From contig CAZSUN010000008.1 in the NCBI GenBank assembly GCA_964610045.1, forward strand, positions 5,236 to 69,235: 64,000 nucleotides of DNA. Reading direction: 5' to 3'. The DNA is from an uncultured Sphaerobacteraceae bacterium (GTDB lineage: Bacteria > Chloroflexota > Chloroflexia > Thermomicrobiales > UBA6265). Positions 773 through 63,798 of this stretch are shown one piece after another. Position 1 is the first letter of the stretch, and every line of letters starts with the position of its first letter. The translations under genes and the position numbers were made by a program. The notes under the pieces were generated by a model. That model did not search any database. It worked only from the letters and a program-made list of their open reading frames with translations, and was not told the origin of the DNA.

Positions 773-3700
773 CTACACGGCGGAGATGAACTCGCTGACG
801 ATGTAGCCGGTCCCGACCGTGGCGCTGGTCGCCCGGTACCACGAGTACCCCCCGGCTGATGTCGGCCCGCTGACGATCGTCAGGCGATGTCCCTGCGGCA
901 GGGACGCGATGATCGTGGCGGAGGTCGATGCGCTCGCTCGCAAGCGGACGTTTGGATCGGTCGTCTGGACGATCGCGCCCGCGGGATACGTGCCGGGCGG
1001 CGTGGAACCATCATCGTCTCCAAGTCCGTCCTCGATGCACCATCCGGTTGAGCCGCCCGATGTCCGGATTTGCCACCAGGTGTAGCCATTGGCGATCGTT
1101 GGTCCACCGAGGATTGTGCCGGTGGCGCCGACATTCAGGATGGTGACGACCGAAGCCGAGGTACCGGCCGCTGAACGCAGGTTGATGCGCTCGGTGACCC
1201 GGACAGCGTCGCCGACCTCGAACACTTCGGTTGGAGGAGGCGTGGTGGTTCGCTCGACCAGCCAATCCTGCACGGCCCAACCGGTGCCCTGGGAGGTTTG
1301 GATTTGCCACCAAGTGTAGCCGCTGCCGGCGCTGGGCCCAGCCAGCACGGTGCCGACAACACCAGGTTGCAGGATCGCCACGATACTGCCACTGGTGCTC
1401 GCGCTGGAACGCAGGTTCAACCGCTCGGAAACCTGAACGGCATCCCCGATGTCGAACTTCCCGGTGGGTGGCGGGGTCGTCGTGGTTTCCTCGAGCCAGT
1501 CCTGGACGGCCCAGCCCGTTCCCTGCGAGGTCTGGATCCGGTACCAGGTGTACCCGCTCCCGGTGCTCGGTCCGGCGATAACCGAACCGGTCACTCCGGG
1601 CTGGAGCACGGCGATCACCGATCCACTGGTATTCGCCGCCGACCGCAGGTTGAGGCGTTCTGACACGCGAATTGAGTCGCCGACCTCGAACTTGCCCGTT
1701 GGCGGAGGGGTGGTCGTGGTTTCGACCAGCCAGTCCTGGACCGCCCAGCCAGTGGTGCCGCCGCTGGTCCGGATTTGCCACCAGGTGTAGCCGTTGGCAG
1801 TACGTGGTCCAGCCAGCACCGTCGCGGTTGTGCCTGCGGGCATCGACAGGACAACAGAGCCTGAGGTCGACGGCGCCGAACGCAGGTTCATCCGCTCGGT
1901 CACCCGAATGGAATCGCCAACCTCGAACTTCCCGGCCGGTGGCGGGGTTGTTTCCCGGAGATAGTTTTCGACGATCCAACCGCCACCGTACGGAGCGCCG
2001 TACGCGCCGTACCAGACGTAGCCATTGACGGCTACCGGAGCCACGGTCACCTCGAAGGTCGCCCCGGATGGAGCGCTGGCGGTCACTCCCTGGGCGAGTC
2101 CCGGCCTGGCCCGGACATTCACGGACTGGGTCGTGACCACATAGTCGCCGATGGCAAACGCGGCGGCCGGCGAATCATCGAACGGAACCGGCTCGATCAG
2201 ACTGCTGGCAACCCAACCATCGGCCACGTCCATGACGCGAACCTGGTACCAGTCAAGCCCGTCGCCCTCCAGTGGTCCCATCATCACGTACGCCAGGGAA
2301 TTGGCGGGAACCGATGCGACCACCGCGGCGCTCGTAGTGGGTCCTCGCCGGAGATTGCCGGTCGAGGTAAAGCGGATATTGAGACCGAACGGATACCCGG
2401 TGCCGTCTCCCGGGAATGGCGGCGGGTCCACGATCAGGAAGGCAGCCGATACCCAACCGGTGGGACCGGAGTCGATCGGATCGATCTGATACCAGTTGGC
2501 GCCACCAGTCGTGGTCGGGCCGTCGGTGACCCAGGCGAGGTCACCATTGGCGATGCTGCCGGTCACTGTTCCGTTGGCCGAACTCCGGATGTTCAGTGCG
2601 CCGCCGGTGTCCGTTTGCACGCGCACGCGATCGCCAGGAGCGATCCCGGCCGGTGCGCCGGTTTCGAGAACGCCGGTGTCGAGGGTCTGGGCAGCAAGTT
2701 GGCGAATGGAGGGCAGTTCGTTCCAGAGCATATTGCCGGGACAGGAGGTGCCGTTGACATCCCGGTGCGACGAAATCGTTGGCAGTTCGGGAGCCTCGTG
2801 GAAGTCGGATCCACCGGTGAGATCGAGATCTCGCCCCACCCAGGCAGAGATGGAGACCAGTGCGGACTTCGCCGCTTCGGGGAGCGACGTCGACATGAAA
2901 TTGCCGATCACCGAAATGCCTGAACTGCCAACCGCATACTGGAAGGCATGACCGCCGATGACATCCTGGCCGCCGTATCTCCCCTGGTAGATCCGACCGT
3001 TGTGGTCGACCAGGTAGTTGTAGCCAATGTCGCCCCATTCCTGCTCGACGGCATGGTAGTAGTAAATGGACCGGATGGCTCCGGGCACATCGACCGGTCG
3101 GTTCGCGGTGGCCGTATGGTGGACGATGATGTGACTGACGGTTTCGTATTCGGGCGGCCAAATCTCGCCGAAGCTGGCAAAACGCCAGGTCTCGTTCGCG
3201 CCCCACTGGGCACGGGTGACGATCTCCGGCGGCGCGAGCGTATCGTCGTTCAACGTAAAGGCCGAGATGGCTGGTTGCGGGACGCTCGACAGGTCGTCTT
3301 CCCACGGGCCATCAGTGGGATCGATATACAGGAATGACAGACCGCTGACCGTGCCGGGAACTCCGGCGATGTCGGTGGTCTGGAACCGGACGAACGACTC
3401 GCCCGACGTGAAGATCAGCGCCGTGAACAACCGGTCGTCGCGGGTCGGTTGCCCGCCATCCTCGGTCTGCGCTGCCATCTGCACCGTGTCTGACCAGGTG
3501 ACACCATCCTCGCTCACCTGCACCTGGATCACCGGCCATTCGCCCACCGTGCCGTCCCAACTGGCGCCGAGCGCCCAGAATGGGTAGGCCGCCTCGAACG
3601 TCGCCCATTCGCCGGAGGCTGCGGTCGCCAGGGTTTCGCTGTCGGGAACGAACCGCTCAGCTCGCGTGCCACCGGATTCCTGTGCGGCCGCGATCCTCGC

Positions 3701-3955
3701 TGGGCCGGGCGCGACGCCAATGCCGGATGCTGCCAGCGCCGCCACACCAGCCGCGGCCCGGAGGACGATGCGCCGGTTCGCCCGAACGGTCTCGAGACCG
3801 GAAGCGGAATTGGTGGCCGTATGGTCGTTGCCACGACCTTTTGTCGCTATCCTCCGCATGTCCAGCCTGTCCCCCTCATCGAGTAAATGAGCCACTGGCA
3901 TGGCTACGTGCCCGGAACCATCCTTCCGGTCACGAATAAACGAATGCCGGCTCAC
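773..3955 (-). CDS. Secreted N-acetylmuramoyl-L-alanine amidase (Amidase_2/PGRP type) with about 8 C-terminal SH3b-like domains
   Basis: 1060-aa ORF. Amidase_2 blocks: HIIVHHTA, YYYHAVEQEWGDIGYNYLVDHNGRIYQGRYGG, SHRDVNGTSCPG. A Tat-like signal (ANRRIVLRAAAGVAALAA) suggests the real start is the internal ATG at 3859 (or 3901) rather than 3955. The C-terminal half consists of repeated units of the form G-D-x-V-x-V...LNLRS...SG...GYTW(W/Y)xI...GW. Confidence 0.85.
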   Translation of the reverse strand: MSRHSFIRDRKDGSGHVAMPVAHLLDEGDRLDMRRIATKGRGNDHTATNSASGLETVRANRRIVLRAAAGVAALAASGIGVAPGPARIAAAQESGGTRAERFVPDSETLATAASGEWATFEAAYPFWALGASWDGTVGEWPVIQVQVSEDGVTWSDTVQMAAQTEDGGQPTRDDRLFTALIFTSGESFVRFQTTDIAGVPGTVSGLSFLYIDPTDGPWEDDLSSVPQPAISAFTLNDDTLAPPEIVTRAQWGANETWRFASFGEIWPPEYETVSHIIVHHTATANRPVDVPGAIRSIYYYHAVEQEWGDIGYNYLVDHNGRIYQGRYGGQDVIGGHAFQYAVGSSGISVIGNFMSTSLPEAAKSALVSISAWVGRDLDLTGGSDFHEAPELPTISSHRDVNGTSCPGNMLWNELPSIRQLAAQTLDTGVLETGAPAGIAPGDRVRVQTDTGGALNIRSSANGTVTGSIANGDLAWVTDGPTTTGGANWYQIDPIDSGPTGWVSAAFLIVDPPPFPGDGTGYPFGLNIRFTSTGNLRRGPTTSAAVVASVPANSLAYVMMGPLEGDGLDWYQVRVMDVADGWVASSLIEPVPFDDSPAAAFAIGDYVVTTQSVNVRARPGLAQGVTASAPSGATFEVTVAPVAVNGYVWYGAYGAPYGGGWIVENYLRETTPPPAGKFEVGDSIRVTERMNLRSAPSTSGSVVLSMPAGTTATVLAGPRTANGYTWWQIRTSGGTTGWAVQDWLVETTTTPPPTGKFEVGDSIRVSERLNLRSAANTSGSVIAVLQPGVTGSVIAGPSTGSGYTWYRIQTSQGTGWAVQDWLEETTTTPPPTGKFDIGDAVQVSERLNLRSSASTSGSIVAILQPGVVGTVLAGPSAGSGYTWWQIQTSQGTGWAVQDWLVERTTTPPPTEVFEVGDAVRVTERINLRSAAGTSASVVTILNVGATGTILGGPTIANGYTWWQIRTSGGSTGWCIEDGLGDDDGSTPPGTYPAGAIVQTTDPNVRLRASASTSATIIASLPQGHRLTIVSGPTSAGGYSWYRATSATVGTGYIVSEFISAV
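1016..1951 (-). repeat. Four tandem 234-bp (78-aa) coding repeats, each one SH3b-like domain plus a TTTPPPTGKF linker
   Basis: Protein units TTPPPAGKFEVGDSIRV...WAVQDWLVE occur four times back to back. Boundaries were computed from the ORF frame. The DNA copies are similar but clearly not identical. Confidence 0.85.
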
Positions 3956-4080
3956 ATCGGGACGATTCTACAACAGCCCCCCACCAGAAGCGCTTCCCGA
4001 TCGGTCACCTGCTGCGGTGTGATGCAGGCACTCGCCAGGCCGGACGATCCCGGGTGGAGCAGCACTCATGGCCAACCAGA

Positions 4081-4113
4081 CAAGGCCAGCCGCGTGATAC
4101 GCGGCTGGCCTTG
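4081..4113 (-). terminator. Perfect 14-bp GC-rich hairpin just downstream of the first VanW gene (candidate terminator, no U-tract)
   Basis: caaggccagccgcg / tgata / cgcggctggccttg. It lies 18 nt after the stop codon at 4132. The following sequence is not U-rich. Confidence 0.45.
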
Positions 4114-4131
4114 TACGAGCGGGAATTGCTG

Positions 4132-5973
4132 CTACTTGAAGGTCGTGGCGAAATCCCGATCGGCGACGACATTGCCATCGGCATCGTAGATAACGCGGGT
4201 AAACCCGGTGCTTTTGTTGTTGATACCCCACTTCGTGATATCGACAGACCGCCCGGTATCGGTGCCGTAGATATTCACGTACAGACGGTAATTGTCCGTG
4301 TATGCCTGGATGTACAACCAACCGTCCGTGAAATTCTCGAAGGTGAAATCGGCCCAGCCGTCAGGATCACTGCCGATCTGGAGGATGGAGGCGTCAAAAC
4401 CCGGCCCCCAGCCATCGCGCTCGTAATTGGTCAACCGGTAGGTGTGTGCGTGCCATTCCCCGATCGGCATACCAGACAGCAAGGCAGCCCGGAACACCGT
4501 GGTCGAGACCTGGCAAACACCACCGCCGATTCCGCGTCCGATCTGCTCGGCCACGACGACGGCCGCTTCCTGATAGCCCTTGTCGGCGGTGATTTCGCCA
4601 ATCGCATCGTTGAACGAGAACTCCGCGCCCGGCCGGACCAGCGTGCCATTGAGCAGGCTGGCGGCAACCCGGATGTTTTCGTCGCGCTCCCAGGAGCCTC
4701 CCGCGAAGTTGGAGTCGCCGCTGGCGAGGAAGTTCGTAATACCCAGCGCCGCGAGGTTCGATGAGTCGATGTCCGGATGCACGACCACGGTTGGGACCTT
4801 GACTTCTTCCTTCCCGTTGAGGAAGCCGTCAGCCACGACCTGCGCGAACGCGCCGCCGTTGACGGTCACCCCATCAACGCTCTGGCTCACCGCCACCAGC
4901 CCGACAGCGTTGTCCCAGACGACCCGGGCGTTCACCGGTTCCCGGTTGATTTCACTGGCGTACAACTCGCGAAGCGCGCTGGCGAGGGTAGACGTCTCGA
5001 AGCCGAGTTGCACGGACGGCTGTCCATCGACCGTCACGTTTTCGACGGTCAGGTATGGAACGAGCGCCAAACCGTCCACCCGCCAGGTCCGATTTTCGAA
5101 CGTGACCCGCATCGAGCGGTTCATTTGCTCGTCCACGGTCGCGATGACCGGCGCGAGATCGGCTGCCGTGACATCGGGAGCGGCTACTTCGGTGGGGAGG
5201 TCCTGGCTCACCGGCGCCAGCGTCCGCAGTGTCTCCGTGATCACCGCCGTCGCCGCCGCCCGGTCCACCTGCACCCCCGGTTCCTCCGGCGACACCGTCA
5301 CCGTCGTCCCCTCCACCACCACCGCCGCGTTCACCGCCGGCTGCCCCAGCGCCGCATCCACTTCATCGAACCACGCGTCCAGCACGTCCGCGTTCAACTC
5401 CGTCCGCAACGGCACCACCTGGTCGTGCTGCAGCAACTCCCGTGCCGCCCCCAGCCGCGTCGCCGCGTCCCCCGTCCGCCCCAGGGTCTCCGCTTCCGCC
5501 AGCGAACCCGCCAGGTCCACCGTCACCCCCAGCTCGCTCAATGTCGGCGTCCACGTCTGGCCCCCGTACCGGAACTCCACCGTCCCCGCTTCCAGTTCGC
5601 CCGCCCGTGCCGCCAGTTCCTGTTCGGCGGCCGCCACCGTCAGCCCGCCGACCGGCACGTCCCCCACGATCACCGCCGGGTAGATCCGCCCGTCGTACAC
5701 CGCCCGGAACACGAACATCCCCACCGCCAACACCAGCACCACCCCGGCGAGGCCGAGAGCGATTGCCGGGATGAAAGCCAGTGCCTTTTGCCGGCGCGTA
5801 CGCGGTTGGCTCGACCGGGTCGTGACCGGTGTGTAGGGCTGGTCGACGGACGGGAGCACGCTCTGGCGCAAGTTGCCGAACATCCCCAAAACGCGCTGCC
5901 TGGCGTTTTCGAAGGTGCCGGCTGCGGTCTCCGTCACAGCGGGAAGGTGCTGCGTGGGGGTGGTTTGGGCCAT
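4132..5973 (-). CDS. VanW-domain protein (YoaR-like), N-terminal membrane anchor
   Basis: VanW core GGGVCQVSTTVFRAALLSGMPIGEWHAHTYRLTNYERDGWGPGFDASI. TM segment ALAFIPAIALGLAGVVLVLAVGMFVF. The likely start is ATG at 5973 (MAQTTPTQ); the ORF maximum is 6030. Confidence 0.85.
   Translation of the reverse strand: MAQTTPTQHLPAVTETAAGTFENARQRVLGMFGNLRQSVLPSVDQPYTPVTTRSSQPRTRRQKALAFIPAIALGLAGVVLVLAVGMFVFRAVYDGRIYPAVIVGDVPVGGLTVAAAEQELAARAGELEAGTVEFRYGGQTWTPTLSELGVTVDLAGSLAEAETLGRTGDAATRLGAARELLQHDQVVPLRTELNADVLDAWFDEVDAALGQPAVNAAVVVEGTTVTVSPEEPGVQVDRAAATAVITETLRTLAPVSQDLPTEVAAPDVTAADLAPVIATVDEQMNRSMRVTFENRTWRVDGLALVPYLTVENVTVDGQPSVQLGFETSTLASALRELYASEINREPVNARVVWDNAVGLVAVSQSVDGVTVNGGAFAQVVADGFLNGKEEVKVPTVVVHPDIDSSNLAALGITNFLASGDSNFAGGSWERDENIRVAASLLNGTLVRPGAEFSFNDAIGEITADKGYQEAAVVVAEQIGRGIGGGVCQVSTTVFRAALLSGMPIGEWHAHTYRLTNYERDGWGPGFDASILQIGSDPDGWADFTFENFTDGWLYIQAYTDNYRLYVNIYGTDTGRSVDITKWGINNKSTGFTRVIYDADGNVVADRDFATTFK
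5183..5750. repeat. Copy 1 of a 568-bp tract identical to 7404..7971
   Basis: Read base by base at both ends and at several internal lines with a constant offset of 2221 nt. It encodes the TM end plus 189 identical residues of both VanW proteins. Confidence 0.9.
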
Positions 5974-6232
5974 GCGTGAAGCTCTCGATTCAAAACTTGC
6001 CCGGAAAGGATACCCCGAGCGCGAATGCATTGCCGCACAAAGCCAACCAGCCAGATTGGCGGGATCAGGAACTGGCCTGTGGGAACGGTATCTGGCGGGG
6101 CGCCTTACCGGCTGTCATCCGTCGCCGGCGCGGAGGATCTGGACATCGAATCCTTGATCAGTTTGTCACAGGTTGGGACCGGTCGCAACTGACCCGGAAT
6201 CACTGCCCCAGCCGGATCAAGTCACCCCTGGC

Positions 6233-8182
6233 CTACCCCGTTCCCACCTCGTAGACGTTGCCCCTGCCCTGGAAATACGAATAGAACTGCCGCTCGCCCA
6301 CGACTTCGCCGTTGGCGTCGTAGATCATCCGCACGAAGGATGTTTCCAGGCCCGCCATCGGCCATTCCGTTTGGCGCCGCTGACCGGCTGGGAGATCGGA
6401 TGTGTACACCACCACATCTTCGTTGTTGGTAATTGGATCGCTCTGCCAGTGATTCACGATATCGACGGTGTTTCCGGTTTCCGGCCCGTAAATGTTCACG
6501 ATCACGTAAGGCCAATCGGTCCAGGCTTCCACCAGCAGCCAGCCGTCGGTGAAGTTGGTGAAGGTCAGGTCTCCCCAGTATGCCGGATTGTCACCGGATT
6601 GCAGGATCGATGCATCGAATCCCGGTCCCCAGCCGTCGCGCTCGTATCCCTTCAACCGGTACGTGTGCGGGTTCCACTCCCCGATCGGCATGCCGGCCAA
6701 GAGCGCGGCCCGGAACACCGTGGTCGAAACCTGGCAAATGCCTCCGCCGTAATCCGTGCCGACCCGCTCGGCAACCACCACGGATGCTTCCACGTAGCCT
6801 TTCTCGGGCGTAATGGTGCCGATCGCTTCGTTGAACGAGAACTCCGCACCTGGCCGGACGAGCGTCCCGTTCAGGAGACTCACGCCGACGTTGATATTCT
6901 CGTCACGCTGCCAGCTGCCTCCATCGTAGTTGGAATCGCCACGGCCGAGCCGCGTCTCGATCTTGAGGGCAGCGAGGTTCTGGTCGTCGATTTCGGGACG
7001 TACTTCAACCACGGGAATGGTGACCTCGGTTTCACCGCCGAGGAAGGCCGCCTCCACCCGCTCCGCGAACTCACCCGCCTTGAGCGTGATCCCGGTCTGA
7101 CTTGGATCGAGCGCGATCAATCCGTTCTCGGTGCTCCAGGCCACGCGGGCGTCGATCGGATCCCGGTTGATTTCTTCGCTGAACTGGGTGCGCAAATCCG
7201 CCGCGAGAGAGTCGGTGTCCATCGTCAGCTGCGCCTGCGGCTGGCCATCGACCAGCACGGTCTCGGCTGTGACGTACCCGGCCAATGAATCCGCACTGAC
7301 CCTCCAGGAACGCCCCTCGAAGATAACGCGCAGGTTGGCGCCAAGGATGCTGCTGACGTAGGCCTGCGCCTCGACGAGGTCGGTGGCAAGGATCGCCGGC
7401 ACCGCTACTTCGGTGGGGAGGTCCTGGCTCACCGGCGCCAGCGTCCGCAGTGTCTCCGTGATCACCGCCGTCGCCGCCGCCCGGTCCACCTGCACCCCCG
7501 GTTCCTCCGGCGACACCGTCACCGTCGTCCCCTCCACCACCACCGCCGCGTTCACCGCCGGCTGCCCCAGCGCCGCATCCACTTCATCGAACCACGCGTC
7601 CAGCACGTCCGCGTTCAACTCCGTCCGCAACGGCACCACCTGGTCGTGCTGCAGCAACTCCCGTGCCGCCCCCAGCCGCGTCGCCGCGTCCCCCGTCCGC
7701 CCCAGGGTCTCCGCTTCCGCCAGCGAACCCGCCAGGTCCACCGTCACCCCCAGCTCGCTCAATGTCGGCGTCCACGTCTGGCCCCCGTACCGGAACTCCA
7801 CCGTCCCCGCTTCCAGTTCGCCCGCCCGTGCCGCCAGTTCCTGTTCGGCGGCCGCCACCGTCAGCCCGCCGACCGGCACGTCCCCCACGATCACCGCCGG
7901 GTAGATCCGCCCGTCGTACACCGCCCGGAACACGAACATCCCCACCGCCAACACCAGCACCACCCCGGCGACAGCCATCGCCAGGGTTGGCCACAGTCTC
8001 GCCAGGCGGTGGGGAATACCGGGTGCCTGTTGAGTGGTCCTGCCTTCACCGGAATCGCTGGATGGCAGGACAGATGTCCACAGCCGTTCTGGGAGGGATC
8101 CAGGCCAGGAAGTCCCCCGCGATCCGGCCTCCGATCGCGATGTGACAGGCGCTGTTTCGTTCAGCGGTAGATTGTGCGCCAT
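6233..8182 (-). CDS. VanW-domain protein, tandem paralog
   Basis: VanW core GGGICQVSTTVFRAALLAGMPIGEWNPHTYRLKGYERDGWGPGFDASI. The likely start is ATG at 8182 (MAHNLPLNE); the ORF maximum is 8245. The C-terminal two-thirds is only roughly half identical to the neighbouring paralog. Confidence 0.85.
   Translation of the reverse strand: MAHNLPLNETAPVTSRSEAGSRGTSWPGSLPERLWTSVLPSSDSGEGRTTQQAPGIPHRLARLWPTLAMAVAGVVLVLAVGMFVFRAVYDGRIYPAVIVGDVPVGGLTVAAAEQELAARAGELEAGTVEFRYGGQTWTPTLSELGVTVDLAGSLAEAETLGRTGDAATRLGAARELLQHDQVVPLRTELNADVLDAWFDEVDAALGQPAVNAAVVVEGTTVTVSPEEPGVQVDRAAATAVITETLRTLAPVSQDLPTEVAVPAILATDLVEAQAYVSSILGANLRVIFEGRSWRVSADSLAGYVTAETVLVDGQPQAQLTMDTDSLAADLRTQFSEEINRDPIDARVAWSTENGLIALDPSQTGITLKAGEFAERVEAAFLGGETEVTIPVVEVRPEIDDQNLAALKIETRLGRGDSNYDGGSWQRDENINVGVSLLNGTLVRPGAEFSFNEAIGTITPEKGYVEASVVVAERVGTDYGGGICQVSTTVFRAALLAGMPIGEWNPHTYRLKGYERDGWGPGFDASILQSGDNPAYWGDLTFTNFTDGWLLVEAWTDWPYVIVNIYGPETGNTVDIVNHWQSDPITNNEDVVVYTSDLPAGQRRQTEWPMAGLETSFVRMIYDANGEVVGERQFYSYFQGRGNVYEVGTG
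7404..7971. repeat. Copy 2 of the 568-bp identical tract
   Basis: See 5183..5750. Confidence 0.9.
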
Positions 8183-8428
8183 TCGCTCGTTGCTCTCGTG
8201 ATCGAAGCCAACCCGCATGCATACGAAAACCGACGAATCAACCACAAGGTGGTCGACCGATTTTCCATGCCTACAGTGTACCTGCGAACCAATCAGCCTG
8301 CACCACGTAATGCTCGCCTCGTTGCCACATCAAAAGAACCCTTGATCGGGCGATTGGTGGCGAGTCGTTCACCAGCGCGATGCTGCCCTCAAACCTGGTC
8401 TACGCCGCGCCATTCCACCCGGATGCAT

Positions 8429-8439
8429 GCGACATCGCC
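8429..8439. promoter_or_regulatory. Direct-repeat box GCGACATCGCC (copy 1 of 3)
   Basis: The exact 10-mer GCGACATCGC is present three times within 300 bp of the VanW / two-component-system divergent spacer. Confidence 0.35.
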
Positions 8440-8593
8440 GAAAGACACAGTTTCGTGATACTCCTGTCGTACTTCCACGGCATCCGGAATCTATCCTGCA
8501 ATTGTCGTCGATGGCGACCCGGAGAAAGCGGGAACAGCCAACCGCCCGGATCGGCCAGGACGTCATGAGGATCCCCCATCCTTCCCCTCCCCC

Positions 8594-8646
8594 AAGGAAG
8601 GCCGCAGGTGCAAAGGTGCCTGCGGCCTCTCCTTCCTTAAACGACC
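8594..8646 (-). repeat. REP-like hairpin element with AAACGACC tail (variant of family A)
   Basis: ggccgcagg / tgcaaaggtg / cctgcggcc, flanked by aaggaa...ttcctt and followed by ttaaacgacc. The tail matches the copies at 52722 and 63656. Confidence 0.5.
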
Positions 8647-8657
8647 ATGACGGGATC

Positions 8658-8668
8658 GCGACATCGCC
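8658..8668. promoter_or_regulatory. Direct-repeat box GCGACATCGCC (copy 2 of 3), positioned where a -35 would lie relative to TACAAT at 8689..8694
   Basis: Exact repeat. A TACAAT hexamer lies 20 nt downstream. Confidence 0.35.
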
Positions 8669-8719
8669 GGAGGAATGGACCAGGTAGGTACAATGGCTTG
8701 AGCAAGGTGCAGGATGGCC

Positions 8720-8730
8720 GCGACATCGCG
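8720..8730. promoter_or_regulatory. Direct-repeat box GCGACATCGCG (copy 3 of 3)
   Basis: Exact 10-mer repeat, 32 nt upstream of the response-regulator ATG. Confidence 0.35.
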
Positions 8731-8761
8731 ACCCCGGCATCGTTGGGGGATCTCGAGGACC

Positions 8762-9496
8762 ATGGCCAGCATTGTTGTCGTCGAAGATGAACGCGAACTC
8801 GCCCGACTCATCGGACAGACGCTCCGCGACAGTGGCCACCTGGTGGAAACCATCCACGACGGTCAGGTGGCGCTCGATCGACTCACCGGTCCCAACCGGT
8901 TGACACCGGACCTGATCGTCCTCGACCTGATGCTGCCGAGGGTCGACGGTTTGACGATCTGCCGACGCATTCGCCAGGACCGTATCATTCCAATCCTGAT
9001 GTTGACCGCCAAATCCACCGAACTGGATCGCGTGCTTGGCCTTGAGTTGGGGGCGGATGACTATCTCACCAAACCGGTCTCGCTGCGAGAGCTCCAGGCG
9101 CGTGTGTCCGCGATCCTGCGGCGGGTCGAAATGATGCGCGTCGAGTCGCAGACCCGCGAGAGTGTCTCCGAGGTGATCGAGCACGAGGACCTGCGGATCG
9201 ATCCGGTCGGCCGGGAAGTCCTCGTGGAGCAGGTCGAGGTCAATCTGACCGCCAAGGAATTCGACCTCATCTACCTGCTTGCCTCGCACCCTGGCCGCGT
9301 CTTCTCCCGGAATTACCTCCTCGACCGGCTTTGGGGAGACACCTATTCCGGGTTCGAGCGAACCGTTGACACGCACATCCAGCGACTCCGCCGCAAATTG
9401 GGAGGCTCGGGCTCGGTCGCCGACCGGATCGTGACGCTGTGGGGTGTTGGCTACAAGTACGAGCGGAACGCCAGCCCTGCCGCAGACGGCACCTGA
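8762..9496 (+). CDS. OmpR/PhoB-family response regulator
   Basis: The receiver domain begins MASIVVVEDERELARL and continues DLIVLDLMLPRVDGLTICRRIR. The C-terminal winged-helix region reads LTAKEFDLIYLLASHPGRVFSRNYLLDRLWG...VDTHIQRLRRKL. The start was moved to ATG at 8762. Confidence 0.9.
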   Translation: MASIVVVEDERELARLIGQTLRDSGHLVETIHDGQVALDRLTGPNRLTPDLIVLDLMLPRVDGLTICRRIRQDRIIPILMLTAKSTELDRVLGLELGADDYLTKPVSLRELQARVSAILRRVEMMRVESQTRESVSEVIEHEDLRIDPVGREVLVEQVEVNLTAKEFDLIYLLASHPGRVFSRNYLLDRLWGDTYSGFERTVDTHIQRLRRKLGGSGSVADRIVTLWGVGYKYERNASPAADGT

Positions 9497-9502
9497 TCGC
9501 CG

Positions 9503-11164
9503 ATGCGATCGCTGCGAAGCGCCAAACGCCTGCCCGACGATGCCACCATCCCCGAGCAGCTCCTCTACTGGCTGTTCACTCCCGTTCGTCTCTACCGGCA
9601 GCGCACCGCCGTCCAACTGGTCATTAGTTATGTCATGATGACCGTTATCACGGTCCTGCTCCTCGTCGCTGGTGTGGTCGCCATCGTCTGGTGGCCACGC
9701 ATCGCCGAAATCGGCAACTTCGAGGACATCACCCTGGATTACGGTCTCGGTGAAAAGGCGCGATCCTACGCCTGGTGGCTCGATCCGGATGGCCTTGCGC
9801 CGATGATGACCGAGGGACCGACCGATGCCGAACTGGCAACGCTCGAACAGCAACTGGCAGACATCGTCCACTACGAGGTGACGGGCTTCGACGGTCCGGT
9901 CAGCAACAACCACGCGTTCCAGATCGCGCATGTTGCGATCGTCAACATGGATGGCATGATCGTTGCCAGCGACGACGCCAGCTGGGTGTCACAGGGTTCT
10001 CCACTGTCGCGTTTCGCCCTCGGTTCCACCCGGTCGGTCGTCGCCCGTACGCTCGTGCTGGCCGGCCAGCCAGATCCGACCTGGGGCACCCTCTACTCAC
10101 TCGAGGTCGAACACGAGCGAACCTCGGCATCCTATCCATTGATCACCCGGGACGGCGAGATGATCGGCGTCATCGTGCTCGAAGGCAATCCCATACGCTC
10201 GGTGATCGGTGGCGAATCCCGGTTCGGGCTCATCCACTATTTCCTGGGGCAACTCCGGTACGTGATGGTGCTGATCATCGTCCCCGCGATTGTCGTCGCC
10301 ATTCCGTTCGGCGTCTGGCGGGCACGGTCGATGTCCCGCCGCCTCGAAGGCATGGCCGCCGCCGCCGACGCAATGGCCGAAGGCGAACTCGACACTCGCA
10401 TCCCGGTCAAGCAACGAGACGAGATTGGACGTCTCGCCGAGCGATTCAACGAAATGGCGTCGACCATCTCCACAACCGAACGGCAGCGGCAGGCATTCAT
10501 CTCAAACGTTTCGCACGAATTACGCACCCCCATATCGATCATCCAGGGCACCGTCGAACGTCAACTCGAGAGCCAACCACCGCCGGATCCCGAGCTTGTC
10601 ACGTCGCTGCAGGTCGTCCGGCGGGAAGCGGACATGCTCGAGCGGATGATCGCAGACCTCTTCACCCTGACCCGCCTCCGGGAAAACAGCCTGCGTCTCG
10701 AACGCAAGGCCTTCGATTTTGCCGACCTCGCCAGCAAGACCGTTGGCGGCATCAGTTCCCTTGCCTGGACGCAGTCGCGGGTCAGCATGGAGTCCCTGGT
10801 CCCGCCGGACTTGCCACTCGTCTACGGTGATGAGACCCGGATCCGGCAAATCCTCAACAACCTCCTGTACAACTCCCTCCGGCACACGCCCGAAGGCGGG
10901 TTGGTTGTGCTGCAGGCGAAACCAGCCGGTGCCATGGTCGAGGTCGCCGTGAGTGACACCGGCCTCGGTATCCCGGAAGACGAAGTCGAATTCGTGTTCG
11001 ACCGCTACTACCAGGCGGAGCGGGGCAACCGGCACGATGAAGGGAGTGGCCTGGGCCTGAGCATCGTCCAGCAGCTCGTTCGCGCCCACGGTGGTGACGT
11101 CAATGTGTCATCCCGCCAAGGCGAGGGAACCACCTTCCGCTTCACCTTGCCACAGGCAAGCTGA
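9503..11164 (+). CDS. Sensor histidine kinase (two TM segments, HAMP, HisKA, HATPase_c)
   Basis: H-box FISNVSHELRTPISII. N/G boxes LNNLLYNSLRHTPEGG, DTGLGIP and GSGLGLSIV. It starts 7 nt after the regulator stop. Confidence 0.9.
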   Translation: MRSLRSAKRLPDDATIPEQLLYWLFTPVRLYRQRTAVQLVISYVMMTVITVLLLVAGVVAIVWWPRIAEIGNFEDITLDYGLGEKARSYAWWLDPDGLAPMMTEGPTDAELATLEQQLADIVHYEVTGFDGPVSNNHAFQIAHVAIVNMDGMIVASDDASWVSQGSPLSRFALGSTRSVVARTLVLAGQPDPTWGTLYSLEVEHERTSASYPLITRDGEMIGVIVLEGNPIRSVIGGESRFGLIHYFLGQLRYVMVLIIVPAIVVAIPFGVWRARSMSRRLEGMAAAADAMAEGELDTRIPVKQRDEIGRLAERFNEMASTISTTERQRQAFISNVSHELRTPISIIQGTVERQLESQPPPDPELVTSLQVVRREADMLERMIADLFTLTRLRENSLRLERKAFDFADLASKTVGGISSLAWTQSRVSMESLVPPDLPLVYGDETRIRQILNNLLYNSLRHTPEGGLVVLQAKPAGAMVEVAVSDTGLGIPEDEVEFVFDRYYQAERGNRHDEGSGLGLSIVQQLVRAHGGDVNVSSRQGEGTTFRFTLPQAS

Positions 11165-52607: not shown

Positions 52608-52731
52608 CGTTCGTAGGGCGGGCCCTGTGTGGCCCGCCGCTGCAGTCAACCGCGCAGGTTCTGTCCTAACTCCGTATCAGGTAGGGGAAGGGCCGACACA
52701 CGCTCGCTGGTCGGCCCCTACAAACGACCGA
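52608..52731. repeat. Family A inverted pair (REPIN-like): CGTTCGTAG-hairpin on the plus strand, and hairpin-CTACAAACGACCGA (GTAG on the minus strand)
   Basis: The left unit, 52608..52638, reads GTAG ggcgggcc ctgtgt ggcccgcc. The right unit, 52681..52731, reads gggccgac acacgctcgctg gtcggccc ctacaaacgaccga. Confidence 0.75.
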
Positions 52732-52958
52732 GGCGCGCCGGGCAGTGATACCGAATCGGGTAATCAGGTGAGGTTCCAGACAGTTCGTGGCGTTCGCGAC
52801 CTCGGCGTTCGTTCGCGGGCGGAGCAAGATCCGCAGCCCAACTGGTTCGGCCCGTGTTCACCCGGAGTCGGTATGCCCCGTCCAGGACCCGGAAAGTGGA
52901 ACTGTTGGCCTTCCCTGCCAGCAGTCAGGGTGAATTGACCATTGAAGGAGCCCCGGCG

Positions 52959-63420: not shown

Positions 63421-63623
63421 TTGCAGGTCGGCGCCCTCCTCACGACACCTCCCATTCCGGGTGCATGAGCGAACACAGTCGGCCAAAACGTGCTGTCATG
63501 TCGAGTAGAGCCCGACCCGAGGCACGGTTCCACCTTTCGCTGGAAGGGGGTCTGTGGGATGGCCAGCCGAGGGATGGGCGGAGTCGAGACATCCCTGTGC
63601 GGAGCACGTTCACCGTGAGCAAA

Positions 63624-63665
63624 GGGCCGCCACACGCTCGCTGGGCGGCCCTTACAAACGACCGA
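63624..63665 (-). repeat. Family A unit: GGGCCGCC acacgctcgctg GGCGGCCC TTACAAACGACCGA
   Basis: The loop and tail are identical to the copy at 52690..52731. The stem differs by a compensatory pair. Confidence 0.75.
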
Positions 63666-63798
63666 AACGCCGCGTCGTCCGGCAGACGTCCACCACCCGT
63701 TGCCCGCCCCTGATTACGTCCCGGTACGTGGAATCGTCGCTCGAGCGGCACGGCCACGCGAATGAGGCAAACTCTCAGGGAGAGAGCCTGTCCACACG

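Follow-up and report, generated by a model that had tools for sequence, protein, structure and literature searches.

Two adjacent genes for VanW-domain proteins, here called A and B, lie in tandem on the minus strand of a 64,000-nt stretch of DNA from an uncultured Sphaerobacteraceae bacterium of the Thermomicrobiales (GenBank assembly GCA_964610045.1, contig CAZSUN010000008.1; the whole 64-kb stretch is called the window, and positions given without a locus name refer to it), and the two genes share 568 identical nucleotides within sequences that are otherwise strongly diverged. Gene A occupies 4132..5973 and encodes 613 amino acids (aa) from the MAQ start of the database protein P0001, to which its product is 100% identical over 613 aa; its longest open reading frame (ORF) extends to 6030. 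Gene B, the upstream paralog, occupies 6233..8182 and encodes 649 aa from the start MAHNLPL (8182), which is the probable one judging from the MAQ and MAH starts of the orthologues; its longest ORF reaches 8245. No 100% match to the product of gene B was found in a collection of 5.8 billion proteins, while that of its neighbour A from the same contig (P0001) is present there. Gene B may have been left uncalled, or called otherwise, in the source annotation.

Both products are predicted to be membrane-anchored proteins with PG_binding_4 and VanW domains, that is, VanW-type L,D-transpeptidases. The parts of A follow each other in the order cytoplasmic tail, transmembrane (TM) segment, PG_binding_4 modules and VanW domain, and B shares this architecture but additionally carries a C-terminal insertion and the GRGNVYEVGTG tail that is typical of B orthologues. 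The VanW domain (PF04294) scores 130.1 bits in A and 115.8 bits in B with a gathering cut-off of 27, and PG_binding_4 (PF12229) scores 67.9 and 70.6 bits, respectively, the Pfam match in A being located at 160-268. The hydropathy maximum falls on a single strongly hydrophobic segment, at 90-108 in A and at 88-106 in B. In the AlphaFold2 model of A, which has a mean pLDDT (predicted local distance difference test) of 78.6, a disordered tail (1-78) is followed by a long helix (79-112), by small alpha/beta modules in series to about residue 417 and then by the VanW domain. VanW was identified in 2024 as an L,D-transpeptidase catalytic domain, in which one Cys is conserved and a Cys/His/Asp triad has been proposed (PMC11348318). 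The motifs are GGGVCQVST (502), WHAHTYR (526) and GFDASILQ (544) in A, and GGGICQVST (500), WNPHTYR (524) and GFDASILQ (542) in B; C506, H529 and D546, assigned to the triad by motif only, are invariant across 23 homologues and kept in both A and B. Considering that the ORFs are intact and that the Cys-, His- and Asp-bearing motifs are conserved in both, the two genes probably encode active enzymes that share an identical anchoring module. Three of the seven VanW proteins assayed from outside Clostridioides difficile were active, and peptidoglycan binding by PG4 domains lacks demonstration even in the reference system (PMC11348318).

The identical tract comprises 5183..5750 (codons 94-283 of the 632-codon ORF A) and 7404..7971 (codons 92-281 of the 670-codon ORF B), both on the minus strand. 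In a self-comparison of the window all 568 of 568 bases are equal at a constant offset of 2221 nt, exactly as the original prediction, made from the sequence without database searches, had stated; the adjoining bases mismatch at both ends, and 568 nt is therefore the maximal exact run. The 64-kb window contains no third copy of the tract and no other long repeat. The reading phase is the same in A and B (phase 1), and about 189 residues are encoded in total, including about 15-19 of the TM helix; the prediction had correctly placed the end of the helix in the tract, and had counted the 189 residues in addition to it. The tract product consists of the distal TM helix and the first two extracellular alpha/beta modules, including PG_binding_4. 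The 5′ edge is the point where the homology between A and B begins, at the start of the shared TM segment. Beyond it, from 5751 onwards against 7972 onwards, the identity of 20-32% is at the random level, which agrees with the complete N-terminal difference that had been claimed: the cytoplasmic tail of A (5751..5973, minus strand) has no detectable similarity to that of B (7972-8182). The 3′ edge falls on strand 280-283 of the model of A, just before a linker and hence at a module boundary, and adjoins the most diverged part of the pair, the middle region, where A and B are 45% identical in aa.

On the 3′ side of the tract the same ungapped 2221-nt offset aligns the diverged homologous flank of A (4200..5182, minus strand, approximate at its outer end), which holds the middle region and the VanW domain, to 6421-7403, with an identity of 60.9% overall and 38-86% per 50 nt. 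The identity along the gene pair is thus not uniform, 100% in the tract against 60.9% in the flank, as the prediction required; its estimate of about one half identity through the VanW domain was too low, the VanW/C-terminal region being 67% identical in aa. All third codon positions of the tract are identical, compared with 33-63% of those outside it. The synonymous divergence (dS) is 0 in the tract and 1.37-1.42, which is saturated, in the flanks, where the ratio of nonsynonymous divergence (dN) to dS is 0.20-0.41. With 384 differences in the 1551-nt ungapped alignment of A and B, a GENECONV-style bound gives log10 P <= -88 for 568 consecutive sites without a difference, and the tract is thus significantly longer than the divergence of the pair would lead one to expect.

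Could selection or convergence have kept the module identical, or could the same module have been imported twice by horizontal transfer? The module is functionally coherent (TM segment and PG_binding_4), and the GC content of the tract (0.73) exceeds the local value of about 0.62. However, selection at the protein level cannot fix about 190 third codon positions, and a single conversion is far more probable than two independent imports that happen to share their end points. In addition, the tract is native, its nearest homologues being orthologous regions of Thermomicrobiales genes (P0003, 82%, and P0002, 71%), and a high GC content at third codon positions (GC3) is common to the relatives that are homogenised in the same region. 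Maintenance by selection or double import is therefore scarcely credible as the origin of the identity. A mobile element or repeat was also considered and rejected, because the tract is read in frame and all relatives have an orthologous sequence in that region.

The homologues of A and B come from uncultured Chloroflexota, including Thermomicrobiales, and the complete locus, in the order two-component system, B, A and amidase, is also found in L001 (a 2.8-Mb contig from another species), L002, L087 and L093. The duplication that gave rise to A and B appears to be old, because the dS of the flanks is about 1.4 and orthologues of both genes are located in the same syntenic locus elsewhere. In the closest relative, L092, the locus is partial and a C-terminal fragment of B precedes the A-position gene P0003. 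The catalytic part of B (6233-6890 against L092:2-658) is 92.7% identical in aa with a dN of 0.06; window A (4132-5182 against L092:989-2749) is 63% identical to the A-position gene with a dN of 0.33, at a dS that is similar to that of B and saturated. From this difference in dN at similar dS, A appears to be the fast-evolving copy of the pair. Between the window and L092 the dS is 0.48 in the tract and 1.2-1.8 in the flanks. In a more distant group (L088 and L089) an A-like gene is located upstream of a B-like gene, without mosaic identity. A metagenome scan with protein A returned five loci, all distant, and among the matches listed in the genome scan, which were mostly single-copy loci of distant Chloroflexota, L002 was the sole useful pair.

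To compare the histories of the two parts of the genes, codon-aligned neighbour-joining trees with 200 bootstraps were built separately for the tract region and for the VanW region. In the tract-equivalent region the paralogs within a genome are 100% (window), 85% (L001) and 81% (L002) identical in aa, and any orthologues 55-71%; the by-genome pairs are recovered with bootstrap values of 1.00 in the window, 1.00 in L001 and 0.99 in L002, and of 0.14 in L087. In the VanW/C-terminal region the closest sequences to window A are A orthologues (77-78%) and those to window B are B orthologues (69-73%), the bootstrap values of the by-genome pairs are 0.00-0.01 (0.01 for the window pair), and the clade of B orthologues is recovered at 0.53. 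The trees are thus incongruent: paralogs group together in the tract and orthologues in the flanks.

This incongruence also bears on the proposal that a recent partial duplication or unequal crossover produced a chimeric gene, with no non-reciprocal conversion. Tandem direct repeats do exchange unequally, and the copy number of the locus varies in Thermomicrobiales, with B only in L090 and A only in L094. (Upstream of its A-only gene, L094 has a 172-aa ORF that was examined as a possible remnant of B and rejected as unrelated.) However, a single unequal event would leave a deletion or a triplication with one junction, and what is observed is an internal patch with two junctions, both ORFs intact and the 2221-nt offset continuing past the 3′ junction, which is the pattern of an exchange without crossover. 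The paralogs are old, colinear and full-length, their spacing is unchanged, and in both flanks the orthology to A and B of other genomes is preserved; the 92.7% identical fragment in L092 disfavours an origin of gene B after the separation from that lineage. Taken together, this makes a crossover product very improbable, and the old duplication, the dS of 0 in the tract and the region-wise trees bear out the claim of recent gene conversion between adjacent diverged paralogs.

Homogenisation of the same region is not restricted to the window. The L001 pair contains five near-identical segments of 134, 173, 54, 158 and 61 nt (95.5-100% identical) on a background of 67%, with third-position identities of 87-100% within the patches and 33-57% between them. 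In the L002 pair the N-terminal region is 80-91% identical and the remainder 51-70%. Paralogs are closer to each other than to orthologues in the window, L001 and L002/L093, and this is not the case in L087, L088 and L089; a comparison of orthologous loci, proposed earlier as a way to see whether the tract is lineage-specific, therefore finds the homogenised region recurring in part of the relatives and lacking in others. The accompanying idea of an N-terminal module that undergoes homogenisation alongside diverging catalytic domains holds broadly in three lineages and is not absolute: two of the L001 patches lie outside the N-terminal module, the one of 158 nt in the middle region and the one of 61 nt inside the VanW domain. 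Because the paralogs cluster by genome in three lineages, and because L001 carries five older patches, conversion appears to have been recurrent, and at least two further lineages have homogenised this region on their own. The patterns in L001, L002 and the window are those to be expected if conversion had struck repeatedly at different times, and the event in the window would be the youngest and longest of them.

The recurrence in independent assemblies also argues against a pure artefact, in which the genes really differ and one collapsed repeat edge was threaded through both copies, or polishing homogenised them. The source contig, about 73.7 kb long, belongs to a metagenome-assembled genome, and it is odd that gene B is missing from the protein collection in which A is present. 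Bubble removal in de Bruijn assemblers can erase a few single-nucleotide differences between near-identical repeats. However, this would need true copies that are nearly identical already, which is the biological finding itself. Moreover, the assemblies L001, L002 and L093 are homogenised in the same region, and the 2.8-Mb contig of L001 keeps scattered mismatches; synteny confirms the two-gene arrangement, and the tract does not end at arbitrary k-mer positions, its edges coinciding with the limit of homology on one side and with a module boundary on the other. An assembly or polishing error as the source of the tract is accordingly improbable.

L002 and L093 are near-identical strains and can be compared site by site. 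Their A genes (L002:2974-4873 and L093:3078-4916) are 98.4% identical, and 27 of the 30 differing sites are located in nt 88-731, the homogenised region, and none in nt 732-1851. Nine of the sites form a cluster at nt 687-731, where the A gene of L002 equals its own B at eight of nine. The pattern in which one or the other of the two A genes equals B was rejected as evidence of conversion, because plain mutation predicts the same when A and B are about 83% identical; the clustering of sites alone is informative. In gene B (L002:651-2751 against L093:821-2794) the first 430 or so codons are 98-100% identical (100% in most windows of the comparison), and the VanW domain has a nucleotide identity of 74-90%. 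The pattern suggests that the catalytic domain was replaced allelically in a separate event, or that one of the assemblies is a chimera of strains.

The base composition of the tract is unusual at silent sites. Its GC3 is 0.916 and its GC content at four-fold sites (GC4) is 0.955, and this GC3 is the highest among 403 windows of 190 codons in 32 long ORFs of the 64-kb stretch (mean 0.773, standard deviation 0.076). The GC3 of the tract-equivalent region minus that of the rest of the gene is +0.13 in the window, +0.13 to +0.16 in L002 and +0.06 in L001, compared with -0.08 to +0.04 in the non-homogenised pairs and in nine single-copy genes. By GC3, raised silent-site GC is thus confined to the converting segment; GC4 follows the same trend with a slight overlap with the controls. 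Seen in three or four lineages, with changes that are unpolarised, the difference hints at GC-biased gene conversion at the tract. Lassalle et al. 2015 reportedly described GC-biased gene conversion in bacteria for allelic recombination across genomes. The present case resembles theirs in that the recombining segment has higher GC3 and GC4 values than both the remainder of the gene and non-recombining homologues. It differs in that the signal would come from conversion between paralogs within one locus, not from allelic exchange, and is seen in three or four lineages.

Considering these results together, we regard it as highly probable that a very recent interlocus (ectopic) gene conversion, in which two tandem paralogs on the same strand took part, left the identical tract. 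The direct repeats, whether within a single chromosome or on two sister chromosomes, could have undergone RecA-type homologous recombination with a non-crossover resolution, so that about 568 nt would have been copied from one gene into the other. The extension of the heteroduplex would have been stopped by heterology on both sides, since it could not enter the unrelated cytoplasmic tails. Earlier conversions would keep the region similar and thereby still competent for recombination, and the tails and most of the catalytic half would have escaped; the region might thus be seen as a domain of ongoing concerted evolution.

With respect to direction, both nearest homologues of the tract, P0003 and P0002, are A-like genes in the A-position, and the A tail is 72% identical to that of P0003, the similarity between A and P0003 being continuous across the 5′ junction. 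No homologue of the B tail was found among 167 relatives. The position of the nearest homologues and the similarity that spans the 5′ junction weakly suggest that A was the donor (A to B); the relatives that carry P0003 and P0002 may themselves be homogenised.

Several points weigh against the interpretation given here. First, recombination starts inefficiently at the identity of about 61% found elsewhere in the pair, and the event would need prior similarity of the region, a prerequisite that is backed by the relatives. Second, as the source is a metagenome-assembled genome, bubble popping or short-read polishing could raise an identity of about 97-99% to 100%; because an assembler or polisher could erase a few differences between near-identical repeats, "exactly 100%" is less secure than "nearly identical". 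Third, no close relative with the N-terminal region of B was found from which the donor could be read. Fourth, the GC3 signal depends on few independent lineages, and the GC4 controls overlap with it (+0.09 in L014 and +0.07 in L089_up).

The pair is a further instance, in Thermomicrobiales, of a known process in which tandem paralogs evolve partly in concert. Gene conversion is known to underlie such evolution in tufA/tufB and in other recurrent, long-lasting bacterial cases (Wang & Chen 2018, PMC6053082, a paper whose main text makes no mention of VanW). As in these cases, several lineages have paralogs that resemble each other within a genome more than they resemble orthologues elsewhere, the exchange is non-reciprocal and both copies are kept; in contrast to them, the homogenisation is partial (about 30% of the gene) and arranged in mosaic patches, the catalytic half and the tails are diverged, and the genes are adjacent direct repeats. 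Mosaic tandem paralogs shaped by interlocus gene conversion include mammalian TLR1/TLR6 (PMC2077338), and mosaic tandem paralogs are also the subject of the HMA4 model of Arabidopsis halleri (bioRxiv 10.1101/2025.10.29.685298). In both, conversion reportedly likewise preserves similarity in one part of the gene and leaves the others to diverge, with sharp boundaries; unlike those eukaryotic pairs, A and B are prokaryotic and the event is extremely recent (zero differences).

In domain composition the closest counterparts are Ldt4 and Ldt5 of C. difficile (PMC11348318), which have a TM helix, PG_binding_4 and VanW, occur as more than one paralog per genome and carry a conserved Cys in a GGGxCQ-type motif together with a conserved His and Asp. 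Unlike Ldt4 and Ldt5, A and B belong to Chloroflexota, are arranged in tandem, are clustered with an amidase and a two-component system, and are known here from sequence; a G5 domain, which is part of the comparison with Ldt4/Ldt5, was not detected in A or B.

What, then, does the pair add? It provides a well-documented prokaryotic case of partial and recurrent interlocus conversion, and it does so in cell-wall cross-linking enzymes that have been recognised as a class only recently. Two practical consequences are that short reads cannot distinguish A from B over 568 nt and that phylogenies of the VanW-transpeptidase family must be built per domain. The perfect direct repeat is also a substrate for a 2221-nt deletion, in which the head of B would be fused to the catalytic half of A, or for amplification. 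The possible signature of biased conversion is the most interesting loose end, and if the GC3 pattern holds in more lineages, it would allow tests of biased conversion in bacteria to be controlled within one and the same gene. A bolder interpretation would be that the TM segment and PG_binding_4 form a long-lived, selectively maintained domain of concerted evolution, in which the two enzymes specialise in their catalytic halves but both need an identical module for anchoring or partner binding, and that conversion drove the silent-site GC to its local maximum. We consider this rather unlikely; if it were true, the shared module could place both enzymes in one complex or wall site with the neighbouring amidase, and the locus would show GC-biased gene conversion at work in a bacterium, in a natural setting with its own internal control.

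The genes on both sides of the pair, identified by their Pfam matches, are conserved neighbours. Downstream, at 773..3955 on the minus strand, lies a gene for an N-acetylmuramoyl-L-alanine amidase (Amidase_2) with seven SH3_3 repeats, and this neighbour is also present in L001, L087, L088, L089 and L090. Within the amidase gene a 107-nt direct repeat with a spacing of 705 nt and an identity of 72% is a potential substrate for intragenic recombination. Upstream and divergent, at 8714..11164 on the plus strand, lies the two-component system, which consists of an OmpR-type response regulator (8714-9496) and a histidine kinase with HAMP, HisKA and HATPase_c domains (9503-11164); its synteny is shared by L001, L087, L090 and L094. 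On the opposite strand a 520-aa ORF without a Pfam match (8369-9931, minus strand) overlaps the response-regulator gene and is probably a spurious ORF of high-GC DNA. A promoter and terminator scan of 3800-8800 gave nothing above the shuffled expectation. Farther away, two sites, 52688-52736 and 63622-63670, carry a 49-nt repeat with an identity of 90%. Within it a GC-rich hairpin (GGGCCGAC...GTCGGCCC) precedes CTACAAACGACCGA, and the repeat may represent a terminator or else a small intergenic repeat element.

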